Positions 9,405 to 42,851 of a stretch of DNA of 64,000 nt are shown here, in pieces. The stretch's first letter is position 1, and the number at the start of each line of letters is the position of its first letter. Where the stretch lies: IMG/VR virus record IMGVR_UViG_2585427970_000001. One strand, 5' to 3'. The stretch comes from a virus (Duplodnaviria; Heunggongvirae; Uroviricota; Caudoviricetes). The position numbers were made by a program, and so were the translations under genes. A model generated the notes under the pieces. That model worked only from the letters and a program-made list of their open reading frames with translations, made no database searches and had not been told where the DNA came from.

Positions 9405-9509
9405 CAGGTCCGCGTGCTTAGTTGCCAGTTCTCCAATGTTCGTTAAGCCGGTTGTGGTTGTTCTGATTGAACCGCCCCGGGTTTCCTGGAGAGTGTTTTA
9501 TCTGTGAAC

Positions 9510-10400
9510 TCAGGCTGCCAGATCATCGTTTCCGATGGAAGCATAATAAGCTTTTTCTGCTTCTGCCGGAGGAGTATGGCCCAGCCTTTCCAGCAATCGT
9601 CGATTGTTATACCAGTCCACCCACGTGAGTGTGGCCAGTTCCACTTCTGCACGGTTTTTCCAGCTCTTACGGTGTATTACCTCCGCTTTGTAAAGACCAT
9701 TGATGCTCTCCGCCATCGCGTTGTCATACGAGTCGCCTGTACTTCCTGTTGATGCCAGTAATCCGGCTTCCTTAAGCCGCTGTGTGTAGGCCAGCGATAC
9801 ATACTGAGAACCTTTATCACTGTGATGGACCGTGCCGGACGGTCGACGGGCCCATAACGCCTGCTCCAGTGCATCCAGCACGAATGTCGTTTCCATGGAC
9901 GATGAGACCCGCCACCCCACGATGTATCCGGCAAACACATCAATGATGAACGCCACATAGACGAAGCCCCGCCATGTGCTGACGTAAGTAAAATCAGCCA
10001 CCCACAGCTGGTCAGGTCGTTCTGCCACGAACTGACGGTTTACGCGGTCGCCTGCGGCAACGGCTTTCCGGCTGATGGTCGTACGGACCTTTTTACCCCG
10101 GAGAACACCGGCAAGTCCCATAACCGCCATGAGACGTGCCACAGTGCATCTGGCCACTCTGATACCTTCCCGTAACAACTGACGCCAGACTTTACGCACA
10201 CCGTATACCTTGTGATTTTCATCGTATACGCGCTGTATCTCTTTCTTCAGCCAGTCATCGCGCTGCGCACGGGCACTGCGTTTATCCGGATGATGTCGCT
10301 GTTGCTGACAGTGGTAATACGTTGACGGGGCAATATGTAGTTCACTGCATACCGGTCCGACCCCGTACAGCTTACGCAGCTTATCCAGCAGTGGCATCAC
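9510..10400 (-). CDS. IS629-like transposase OrfB (DDE catalytic part)
   Basis: 296-aa ORF with IS3-family DDE region (WVADFTYV ... HSDKGSQY ... DNAMAES). Confidence 0.9.
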
Positions 10401-10723
10401 TTTTTCCAGAGGCGGTCGAACTCCGCCTTCGCAAAATAAGCGGAAGCCTGGCGAAGGATATCGTTACTGCGGCGCAGTTCACGATTTTCACGTTCCAGCT
10501 CTTTCAGACGCTGACGTTCAGCGGTGGTGAGCCCTCCATCACCGCCCCCGGTATCCCGCTCATGCTGGCGAACCCAGACACGCAGAGTCTCCGGCGTACA
10601 GCCAATCTTTGGAGCAATGGAACAAATTGTCGCCCATTGTGAGTCATATTCGCTCTGACTTTCCAGAACCATACGGACTGCCCGTTGACGGACTTCGGGG
10701 GAAAAACGAGTATTTTTAGTCAT
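10397..10723 (-). CDS. IS629-like transposase OrfA (HTH part)
   Basis: 108-aa [23 protein letters not shown]..., leucine-zipper-like C-terminus, overlaps orfB as in IS3-family frameshift arrangement. Confidence 0.9.
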
Positions 10724-10779
10724 CCTGTTTACCTCTTTCTCAGGAAGTTTAGTCTCCAGGATTCCCGGGGCGGTTCAAT

Positions 10780-10855
10780 GCCGGTTTAGCTCAGTTGGTA
10801 GAGCGCCTGCCTTGTAAGCAGGATGTCAGCGGTTCGAGTCCGTTAACCGGCACCA
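10780..10855 (+). tRNA. tRNA-Thr (anticodon TGT)
   Basis: Manual cloverleaf: acceptor GCCGGTT/AACCGGC, D-arm GCTC-AGTTGGTA-GAGC, anticodon loop CTTGTAA, T-arm AGCGG-TTCGAGT-CCGTT, discriminator A plus encoded CCA. Confidence 0.85.
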
Positions 10856-38859: not shown

Positions 38860-40053
38860 GTGACCTGGGACGATCACAAGAAGAATTTTGCTCGCCTGGC
38901 GCGAGATGGTGGTTACACCATCGCACAGTATGCCGCCGAGTTTAATCTTAACCCTAATACCGCACGTCGTTATCTCCGTGCCTTCAAAGAAGACACCAGG
39001 ACTGCGGACAGCCGCAAGCCAAATAAGCCAGTCAGGAAGCCACTAAAAAGCATGATCATTGATCACTCTAATGATCAACATGCAGGTGATCATATTGCGG
39101 CTGAAATAGCGGAAAAACAGAGAGTTAATGCCGTTGTCAGTGCCGCAGTCGAGAATGCGAAGCGCCAAAATAAGCGCATAAATGATCGTTCAGATGATCA
39201 TGACGTGATCACCCGCGCCCACCGGACCTTACGTGATCGCCTGGAACGCGACACCCTGGATGATGATGGTGAACGCTTTGAATTCGAAGCTGACGATTAC
39301 CTGATAGATAACGTTGAAGCGCGGAAGGCCGCGCGCGCTATGTTGCGTCGGTCCGGGGCCGATGTTCTGGAAACCACTCTTCTTGAAAAGTCTCTTTCTC
39401 ATCTCCTTATGCTGGAGAACGCCAGGGATACGTGTATTCGCCTGGTGCAGGAAATGCGCGATCAGCAAAAAAACGATGATGAAGGTACTCCGCCTGAATA
39501 CCGTATCGCGAGCATGCTAAACAGCTGTTCCGCGCAGATAAGCAGTCTGATCAACACCATTTACAGCATCCGGAATAACTATCGAAAAGAAAGCCGGGAG
39601 GCGGAAAAGCACGCTTTATCTATGGGGCAAGCTGGCATTGTTAAGCTGGCATACGAACGAAAGCGTGAAAATAACTGGTCAGTGCTGGAAGCAGCTGAAT
39701 TCATCGAGGCGCATGGCGGGAAAGTGCCGCCCCTGATGCTGGAGCAAATCAAAGCCGATCTGCGTGCTCCTAAGACCAATACCGATGATGAGGAAAGGCA
39801 AACTGCCGTCGGTGGCCCTTCTCTTGAAGATCTGGACAAAGTTGCGCGAGAACGGGCCGCCAACCGCCGCGCCGATGCCGCATTGTGGATTGAGCAACGT
39901 AGGGAAGAAATCGCCGATATCGTTGATACAGGCGGTTATGGAGATGTTGATACTGAAGGTGTATCAAACGAACCATGGCTGGAACAAGACCTGGACGAAG
40001 ACGAGGAGGAAGACGAAGAAGTTACCCGCAAGCTATACGGGGATGATGATTAA
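38860..40053 (+). CDS. pacA: terminase small subunit PacA
   Basis: 397-aa ORF containing the pac site in its 5' third; acidic C-terminal tail; start overlaps nothing upstream, stop abuts pacB. Confidence 0.88.
39050..39215 (+). other. pac packaging site (TGATCA/G hexamer clusters)
   Basis: Four TGATCA elements at 39053-39092 and three TGATC(A/G) elements at 39183-39212 flanking a ~90-bp core, i.e. the 4+3 Dam-methylatable hexamer layout described for P1 pac. Confidence 0.8.
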
Positions 40054-40492
40054 TGGCCAGAAGTTGCGTAACGGATCCACGTTGGCGCGAGCTGGTGGCG
40101 CTATATCGTTATGACTGGATTGCGGCCGCTGATGTTTTGTTCGGCAAAACACCTACCTGGCAGCAGGATCTGATTATTGAGTCTGTGCAGGAACAGGGTA
40201 GCAAGACATCTGTTTCGTCTGGTCACGGTACCGGGAAATCAGACATGACTTCTATCATGATCATGTTGTTCATAATCATGTATCCCGGTGCCCGCGCCAT
40301 TATCGTTGCGAACAAAATTCAGCAGGTAATGACCGGTATATTCAAGTACATCAAGATAAACTGGGCTACTGCCACCAGCCGTTTTCCATGGCTTGCTGAT
40401 TATTTTGTTCTGACAGAAACCGCTTTCTATGAGGTTACTGAACCGCCCCGGGAATCCTGGAGACTAAACTTCCTGAGAAAGAGGTAAACAGG

Positions 40493-40819
40493 ATGACTAA
40501 AAATACTCGTTTTTCCCCCGAAGTCCGTCAACGGGCAGTCCGTATGGTTCTGGAAAGTCAGAGCGAATATGACTCACAATGGGCGACAATTTGTTCCATT
40601 GCTCCAAAGATTGGCTGTACGCCGGAGACTCTGCGTGTCTGGGTTCGCCAGCATGAGCGGGATACCGGGGGCGGTGATGGAGGGCTCACCACCGCTGAAC
40701 GTCAGCGTCTGAAAGAGCTGGAACGTGAAAATCGTGAACTGCGCCGCAGTAACGATATCCTTCGCCAGGCTTCCGCTTATTTTGCGAAGGCGGAGTTCGA
40801 CCGCCTCTGGAAAAAGTGA
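40493..40819 (+). CDS. IS629-like transposase OrfA
   Basis: Protein sequence identical to the copy-1 OrfA. Confidence 0.9.
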
Positions 40820-41706
40820 TGCCACTGCTGGATAAGCTGCGTAAGCTGTACGGGGTCGGACCGGTATGCAGTGAACTACATATTGCCCCGTCAACGTATT
40901 ACCACTGTCAGCAACAGCGACATCATCCGGATAAACGCAGTGCCCGTGCGCAGCGCGATGACTGGCTGAAGAAAGAGATACAGCGCGTATACGATGAAAA
41001 TCACAAGGTATACGGTGTGCGTAAAGTCTGGCGTCAGTTGTTACGGGAAGGTATCAGAGTGGCCAGATGCACTGTGGCACGTCTCATGGCGGTTATGGGA
41101 CTTGCCGGTGTTCTCCGGGGTAAAAAGGTCCGTACGACCATCAGCCGGAAAGCCGTTGCCGCAGGCGACCGCGTAAACCGTCAGTTCGTGGCAGAACGAC
41201 CTGACCAGCTGTGGGTGGCTGATTTTACTTACGTCAGCACATGGCGGGGCTTCGTCTATGTGGCGTTCATCATTGATGTGTTTGCCGGATACATCGTGGG
41301 GTGGCGGGTCTCATCGTCCATGGAAACGACATTCGTGCTGGATGCACTGGAGCAGGCGTTATGGGCCCGTCGACCGTCCGGCACGGTCCATCACAGTGAT
41401 AAAGGTTCTCAGTATGTATCGCTGGCCTACACACAGCGGCTTAAGGAAGCCGGATTACTGGCATCAACAGGAAGTACAGGCGACTCGTATGACAACGCGA
41501 TGGCGGAGAGCATCAATGGTCTTTACAAAGCGGAGGTAATACACCGTAAGAGCTGGAAAAACCGTGCAGAAGTGGAACTGGCCACACTCACGTGGGTGGA
41601 CTGGTATAACAATCGACGATTGCTGGAAAGGCTGGGCCATACTCCTCCGGCAGAAGCAGAAAAAGCTTATTATGCTTCCATCGGAAACGATGATCTGGCA
41701 GCCTGA
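40816..41706 (+). CDS. IS629-like transposase OrfB (DDE)
   Basis: Protein sequence identical to the copy-1 OrfB. Confidence 0.9.
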
Positions 41707-42851
41707 GTTCACAGATAAAACACTCTCCAGGAAACCCGGGGCGGTTCATACTGGTAAAGGTGTATGGACTGTAGTACCGAAGGGCTTTCGTCTGGGAAGT
41801 GAAGAAGCTCTCGCCGGTGAACACGCAGATCATCTTCTGTATATTATCGATGAAGCCTCCGGTGTCAGTGATAGAGCTTTCGGTATCATCACCGGTGCTC
41901 TTACCGGACAGGATAACCGCATCTTATTACTGTCACAGCCTACACGCCCAAGCGGCTATTTCTACGATACTCACCATAAACTGGCCAAGCGTCCTGGTAA
42001 CCCTGATGGCGTTTATACGGCGATCACGCTTAACAGTGAGGAATCACCGCTGGTAACGCCAGCATTTATCAAAATGAAGCTGGCGGAGTACGGCGGGCGC
42101 GATAACCCTATGTACATGATTAAGGTACGCGGCCTATTCCCTAAATCACAGGATGGCTTCCTTCTTGGACGTGATGAGGTTGAACGTGCAACGCGGCGGA
42201 AAGTCAAGATTGCCAAAGGATGGGGCTGGCTTGCATGTGTGGACGTTGCTGGTGGTACGGGAAGGGATAAGTCCGTTATCAATATCATGATGGTGTCCGG
42301 CCAGAGAAATAAACGCCGTGTAATCAACTATCGAATGCTGGAATACACAGACGTTACAGAAACGCAGCTTGCCGCCAAAATTTTCGCAGAATGTAATCCT
42401 GAGCGATTCCCAAATATCACCATAGCGATAGACGGCGATGGGCTGGGTAAAGCAACAGCGGATCTGATGTACGAGTATTATGGTATTACCGTACAGCGTA
42501 TACGCTGGGGTAAAAAGATGCATAGCCGTGAAGATAAGAGCCTGTACTTTGATAAACGTGCTTATGCCAACGTTCAAGCCGCAGAGGCCGTAAAATCTGG
42601 TCGTATGAGACTGGATAAGGGTAATGAAACTATTGAGGAAGCGTCGAAAATCCCTGTAGGGATTAACTCCGCAGGTCAATGGAAGGTGATGAGTAAGGAG
42701 GATATGAAGAAAAAACTCAACCTGCACTCACCAGACCATTGGGATACATATTGTTTCGCTATGCTGGCGGATTATGTTCCCCAGGACGAAGTGCTTAGCG
42801 TCGAAGACGAAGCGCAGGTTGATGAAGCTCTTGCATGGCTTAATGAATGAA

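Follow-up and report, generated by a model that had tools for sequence, protein, structure and literature searches.

Two identical, inverted IS629 copies and the probable insertional decay of a P1-like phage-plasmid in Escherichia coli JA65

IS3-family insertion sequences (IS) move by copy-out/paste-in and not by cointegrate-type replicative transposition. A long perfect inverted repeat is a recombination substrate in a recA+ cell, and flipping of the DNA between inverted IS copies is textbook knowledge. Defective P1-like elements derived by gene loss have been described (PMC10879196). Two IS629 copies in inverted orientation were analyzed here in a P1-like phage-plasmid of Escherichia coli JA65, a case that fits this description. 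The window, meaning the whole stretch of 64,000 nt that was analyzed, is IMG/VR virus record IMGVR_UViG_2585427970_000001 and corresponds to positions 32001–96000 of JMJD01000001.1 (121,080 bp, PacBio). JA65 is a urosepsis blood isolate that was sequenced from a single colony with PacBio (HGAP2, 10-kb library, 68x) and Illumina MiSeq (PMC4271156).

The pair is best explained, at a probability of about 0.88, as ordinary IS decay of the phage-plasmid by two IS629 insertions and not as a regulated inversion system. Copy 2 would have entered the large terminase gene pacB by plain transposition with a 3-bp duplication. Copy 1 lies in upfB; its far end is joined to the spacer before tRNA-Thr, and the 4.6–4.8 kb between them is lost. 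The phage functions affected (pacB split, dmt and the C1-controlled ban promoter deleted) would have pushed the element toward a plasmid-only state. Feature coordinates are listed in Table 1.

The IS629 pair and its insertion sites

A repeat search of the window returned a single long repeat, with arms at 9468–10777 and 40439–41748 that are 1310 nt in length, 100% complementary and separated by 29,661 nt. By string comparison, the reverse complement of copy 2 is copy 1 exactly (0 mismatches in 1310 nt). OrfA (108 aa) and OrfB (296 aa) are the same in both copies, with copy 1 on the minus strand and copy 2 on the plus strand. The first-pass annotation, made without database searches, had described two inverted copies encoding identical OrfA and OrfB, and its coordinates, orientation and identity all proved correct by the repeat search, the string comparison and the translations. 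It had also called for a nucleotide comparison of the copies, and the result means that divergence is no barrier to RecA-mediated recombination. Because they are identical, the two copies are, by this measure, recent and from one source copy.

The element is 1310 nt in length and has the TG...CA ends usual for the IS3 family. Its terminal ends read TGAACCGCCCCGGG..., and the first 25 nt of the two termini agree at 23 of 25 positions, forming imperfect inverted repeats. In domain searches OrfA matched HTH_Tnp_1 (E 7e-13), OrfB matched rve (E 8e-28) as well as HTH_21 and rve_3, and both matched NCBIfam transpos_IS3, for which a score of 311 bits was obtained. The ALIL pseudoknot RF01497 scored 116 bits, with a gathering score of 50. 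The length of ~1.3 kb, the TG...CA inverted repeats and two overlapping open reading frames (ORFs) with a −1 frameshift signal are those of the IS3 family. Identity is 99.1% over 1310/1310 nt to the depositor-annotated "IS3 family IS629" in LC567824.1 and LC567828.1, which served as the reference for the level of at least 95% identity to a named IS629 element. Identity to the IS1203 copies on the O111:H8 P1-like plasmid pIDPH8234-2 is ~96%. By these features the element is IS629 in the ordinary sense.

Plasmid pAPEC201602 (NZ_CP127299.1) is an IS-free sibling that is collinear with the window at 98.3–99.5%, carries the same non-P1 island and pins every breakpoint to the nucleotide. At the pacB site the sibling is empty and reads GGTTAC.TGG, and the window reads GGTTAC[IS]TACTGG. 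In longer context pacB reads ...GAGGTTAC.TGGTAAAGG... in the sibling and ...GAGGTTAC[IS629]TACTGGTAAAGG... in the window. Because the empty site has a single TAC and the window has TAC on both sides, copy 2 is, judged by its flanks, a simple insertion that duplicated 3 bp (TAC). The uninterrupted pacB site is present in many other plasmids at 99.5%. The exact 144-aa fusion ORF that runs from pacB into the IS is on record in two NCBI assemblies, JMJD01000001.1 and JFFN01000013.1 (30,158 bp), both from JA65. For the 428-aa ORF that begins within copy 2, a look-up found no called gene. Identity to P1 falls from 94.9% (5′ pacB and upstream, 36224–40440) to 82% (3′ pacB, 41749–42848) exactly at copy 2. 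This mosaic pacB is older than the IS, because many IS-free plasmids share the same mosaic at 99.5%.

Copy 1 has no 3–4-bp target duplication of the kind found at copy 2; its flanking triplets differ (GAT and ATG), which is explained by an associated secondary deletion. The left flank ends ...TTCTGAT at P1 position 64581, within upfB. The right flank starts ATGCCGG, a 2-nt spacer followed by tRNA-Thr, at P1 69424. The lost interval comprises the 5′ 246 nt of upfB, upfC, Odmt/Pdmt, uhr, hrdC, dmt, the C1-controlled Pban/Oban, a dicF-like region and tRNA-Asn. This deletion went unnoticed in the first-pass annotation, which spoke of an upfC-side flank; the outer flank is truncated upfB, and upfC is absent from the window. 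With Pban/Oban gone, just 2 nt separate the IS end from the start of the tRNA-Thr–tci–trnI–ban operon (10780–14025). A scan of the plus strand at 10400–12200, from copy 1 into tRNA-Thr, found no sigma-70-like promoter, which is a weak negative.

The deletion would most likely have come about by recombination between two IS629 copies in direct orientation or by an IS-associated loss of adjacent DNA. A pre-deletion intermediate or another carrier of the junctions was sought in complete E. coli genomes, PLSDB, GTDB genomes, IMG/VR and JGI metagenomes, and matches came from the same strain only. The partner junction that a simple insertion in upfB would have left was also searched for, with no match. 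Plasmid p1585m1_C appeared in the first BLAST to share the upfB–IS629 junction and was rejected; upfB continues there, and the 9-nt overlap is a chance extension. IS copies near tRNA-Thr in pE2855-2 and p1108-IncY were also rejected as the same site, as both lie downstream of the tRNA.

The window does not hold an intact set of packaging genes, with pacB in two pieces and dmt deleted. Loss of phage function is suggested because these genes are disrupted. The element can most likely no longer package its DNA and is maintained as a plasmid, with repA, par and phd-doc intact. Some points weigh against insertional decay as described here. The role of dmt could be taken over by host Dam, and pacB could be restored if the IS were excised precisely. 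No relative was found with a simple insertion at either deletion endpoint, so the route of the deletion is one that we infer. Minor inverted isomers may also be present, as consensus assemblies would not show them.

Assembly support and alternative explanations

All four flank–IS junctions are present at 100% identity in three contigs of the independent JA65 Illumina assembly, IMGVR_UViG_2636416110_000001-3. The contigs are 36.3, 30.2 and 23.7 kb in length, ~90 kb in all, and end at the IS copies, each stopping 247–249 nt inside the IS. The short-read plasmid assembly is in three contigs because of the IS copies. The 30,158-bp contig is identical to window positions 10530–40687, with no mismatch. 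Contigs that end in the IS are the same for either isomer, and the pairing of flanks across each IS comes from the PacBio assembly only. Several kb are still missing from this assembly, outside the window and probably at the Cin-invertible tail-fibre C-segment. At 121 kb, the PacBio contig is larger than the expected plasmid of ~100 kb, which suggests overlapping ends. This excess, together with the status of the contig as an HGAP2 draft of 2014, could be taken to mean that the assembly created one of the copies or the deletion at copy 1. Such an artefact is scarcely credible, as it is refuted for the junctions by the Illumina contigs, which include both sides of the deletion, and the 30,158-bp contig agrees with the PacBio sequence throughout its length.

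The 29.7-kb segment between the copies is oriented as in P1 and pAPEC201602. The first-pass annotation had called this orientation colinear with the P1 map, and both the P1 alignment and the IS-free sibling agree. Had exchange between the IS elements inverted the segment, it would run against P1 and the sibling, and the two TACs would be apart. The exchanged target duplications expected of such an event were not seen, and copy 2 keeps both TACs. By two markers, the gene order shared with P1 and the sibling and the matched duplication of copy 2, there has been no net inversion since copy 2 inserted. RecA-dependent flipping on the 1310-nt perfect inverted repeat is possible in principle. It should be nearly silent and the isomers nearly equivalent, because exchange within the IS would alter none of the four flank–IS junctions, and the two regions concerned are disrupted already.

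The first-pass annotation considered a mixed population of isomers plausible. A culture in which the two isomers are mixed to an appreciable degree (more than about 1%), each converting to the other by homologous recombination at the IS629 pair, is unlikely. The 1310-nt repeat offers perfect inverted homology, yet the PacBio HGAP consensus has one orientation, the ancestral one, and copy 2 has kept its matched duplication. P1 Ref stimulates recombination between short homologies, and the plasmid encodes this RecA-dependent nuclease (PF16786, about window 48205–48765), but in the P1 annotation ref is repressed by C1 in the lysogen (Oref). With DNA from a single colony, and with RecA-dependent inversion at repeats of ~1 kb being a rare event in any one generation, a minority isomer is expected to be well under 1%, an estimate from general knowledge. 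Inverted repeats do drive inversions in E. coli genomes (PMC7430833), but pIDPH8234-2, which is also P1-like and also has IS pairs in inverted orientation, shows no inversion. Still less probable is a RecA-driven flip-flop in which the IS629 pair keeps two isomers with different phenotypes. If such a system were true, read-through into the promoter-less tRNA-Thr/ban operon or into the UpaE-like adhesin island might change. The direction of pac packaging might also reverse when a helper P1 supplies PacB.

Two other origins for the pair were considered and rejected, and both have practically no chance of being correct. Identical inverted IS copies around cargo that includes the adhesin island recall a composite transposon that entered the plasmid as a unit, but the interior consists of P1 backbone in the P1 order and runs on into the outer sequence across both IS, and the adhesin island is at the same place in the IS-free sibling. 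The interior is therefore not foreign, and the outer flanks (GAT and TAC) do not form a common duplication, copy 2 having its own. Both outer ends are right inverted repeats (IRR), and IRR–IRR ends are a poor substrate for IS3-family circle formation. Two inverted identical copies are also the geometry produced when a single IS629 undergoes intramolecular replicative transposition and inverts the intervening DNA in one step. That event would invert the segment, which is not inverted, and would split the duplication between the copies, whereas copy 2 has direct TACs on both of its own sides. The established copy-out/paste-in mechanism of the IS3 family also argues against it.

In plasmid pIDPH8234-2 (NZ_CP077454.1, O111:H8, P1-like) IS1203 is present as four full copies, among them inverted pairs, and one partial copy, and the backbone has stayed collinear. 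The insertions are found in pacB, gene 7/24, dmt and sit and are accompanied by deletions. Its IS in pacB gave a match with 100% cover in four pieces but was rejected as the same insertion as copy 2; it is the IS1203 isoform (96%) and lies 726 nt further downstream, which makes it an independent event. From this example it is evident that P1-like plasmids are subject to repeated erosion by the IS629 group, with independent pacB insertions.

The phage-plasmid backbone and cargo island

The window is collinear with phage P1 (NC_005856) in local blastn, with blocks at 94–98%. Left of copy 1 are genes 21–23, a diverged par region and incA/repA/oriR/upfA/mlp/ppfA/upfB. Copy 1 is followed by tRNA-Thr, tciB-trnI-ban-dbn, tail genes 5, 6, 24, 7, 25 and 26, pmgL-pmgS and the non-P1 island. 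After the island come phd-doc-pdcAB-lpa-pacA, the first ~387 nt of pacB and copy 2. Right of copy 2 are the rest of pacB, an extra icd/antirepressor module, c1-coi-lox-cre-ref-mat-res-mod and darB-prt. Pfam matches on the plasmid include C1, Phd, Doc/Fic, LPA and integrase. The P1 gene order, with repA/incA, par, phd-doc, c1, lox-cre and pac/pacAB, is that of a P1-like (Punavirus-type) element. Alignment to P1 also bore out the earlier description of the segment as running from tRNA-Thr to 5′ pacB with ban, the tail genes, the cargo island, phd-doc and pac.

Table 1. Coordinates of features in the window
Feature	Position	Strand	Details
upfB 3′ remnant	8868–9467	−	Cut by copy 1 at P1 64581
Deletion scar at copy 1	9467–10778		P1 64582–69423 gone; 4,842 bp of P1, 4,598 bp of pAPEC201602
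IS629 copy 1	9468–10777	−	orfA 10397–10723, orfB 9510–10400
ALIL frameshift pseudoknot of copy 1	10326–10442		
Bracketed segment	10778–40438		29,661 nt; ancestral P1-collinear orientation
tRNA-Thr (TGT)	10780–10855	+	Begins 2 nt past the left inverted repeat (IRL) end of copy 1
Non-P1 cargo island	25277–36224	+	10.9 kb, in place of P1 pap..humD
PapI-like ORF	25619–25849	−	
PapB-family regulator	26056–26559		
UpaE-like AIDA-type autotransporter	26865–34814		2649 aa; ESPR signal, AC_1 autochaperone, beta-barrel
OmpH-like protein			180 aa; further island gene
LuxR/GerE regulator			Further island gene
pac site	39051–39231	+	Within pacA; 179/181 nt = P1 90720–90900 (98.9%)
pacB 5′ fragment	40053–40438	+	First ~387 nt of gene
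pacB′–IS fusion ORF	40053–40487		144 aa; runs from pacB into IS
Left TAC target-site duplication of copy 2	40436–40438		Single TAC at empty site
IS629 copy 2	40439–41748	+	orfA 40493–40819, orfB 40816–41706; sits in pacB
Right TAC target-site duplication of copy 2	41749–41751		
pacB 3′ fragment	41749–42850	+	Cut off from its start by copy 2

The island is ~88% identical to chromosomal loci annotated as "phase-variable autotransporter adhesin UpaE". It is 97.8% identical to its counterpart at the same place on pAPEC201602, where the gene is frameshifted. The JA65 island is thus a predicted adhesin locus borne by the phage-plasmid of a bloodstream isolate.

Several other regions are of note. The par region (4056–6468) has a parA ~64.5% identical to P1 and a parB/parS that did not align, with flanking genes at 96–98%, and is a different par specificity type. 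A second inverted repeat (6438–6485 and 6609–6656) is 48 nt in length and 75% complementary. Its arms are iterons in opposite orientation, because they lie within a stretch aligned to the P1 incA RepA-iteron array (P1 61487–61771). At 12298–12373 ARAGORN calls a tRNA-Met (CAT); the P1 homologue is annotated as trnI, a tRNA-Ile2 whose CAT anticodon is read as Ile after lysidine modification. The extra module between pacB and c1 (42848–44560) encodes an icd-like protein (73 aa) and an ORF6N/ANT antirepressor (372 aa). It is only 70–81% similar to the P1 icd/ant1 region and is present in pAPEC201602 as well.

Comparison with known systems

The JA65 plasmid provides a clean, dated example of a P1-like phage-plasmid from a clinical bloodstream isolate that is being turned into a plain plasmid by IS629. 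As an inversion system the pair matters little, since identical inverted IS copies can always recombine and here nothing shows that they did. The more useful points are the crippled prophage, with pacB split and dmt deleted, and the UpaE-like autotransporter island within the segment.

The element resembles IS629 (IS3 family; isoforms IS1203 and IS3411) in its 1310-bp length, TG...CA ends, ~25-bp imperfect repeats, ALIL signal and the 3-bp duplication at copy 2. Its ~96% identity to the IS1203 copies of the O111 plasmid makes it a different isoform from those, and copy 1 differs in having no duplication. The backbone shares with P1 and pAPEC201602 the order of genes 21–23, par, repA, the ban operon, tail genes, phd-doc, lpa, pacAB, c1, lox-cre, res-mod and darB, at 94–99.5%. 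Unlike P1 and pAPEC201602, it has a pacB split by IS629 and has lost upfB′-upfC-uhr-hrdC-dmt-Pban-tRNA-Asn; it also differs from P1 in its diverged par region and in the icd/antirepressor module between pacB and c1.

Composite transposons of the Tn10/Tn5 type likewise consist of identical inverted IS copies around a DNA segment. The JA65 pair differs in having no common duplication, a native backbone as its interior and an IS3-family mechanism that disfavours IRR–IRR ends. E. coli inversions such as the O157:H7 rearrangements arise by homologous recombination between inverted IS or prophage repeats (PMC7430833, PMC8743559), and the JA65 pair shares with them long identical inverted repeats from mobile elements. 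There, however, inversion is seen between strains, whereas the JA65 plasmid holds the substrate only, in the ancestral arrangement. The P1 C-segment (Cin/cix), carried by phage-plasmids of this type, is inverted by a dedicated serine invertase that acts at cix sites, which switches tail-fibre genes. In contrast, the IS629 pair is served by no dedicated recombinase and lacks crossover sites, and its flipping would switch nothing.

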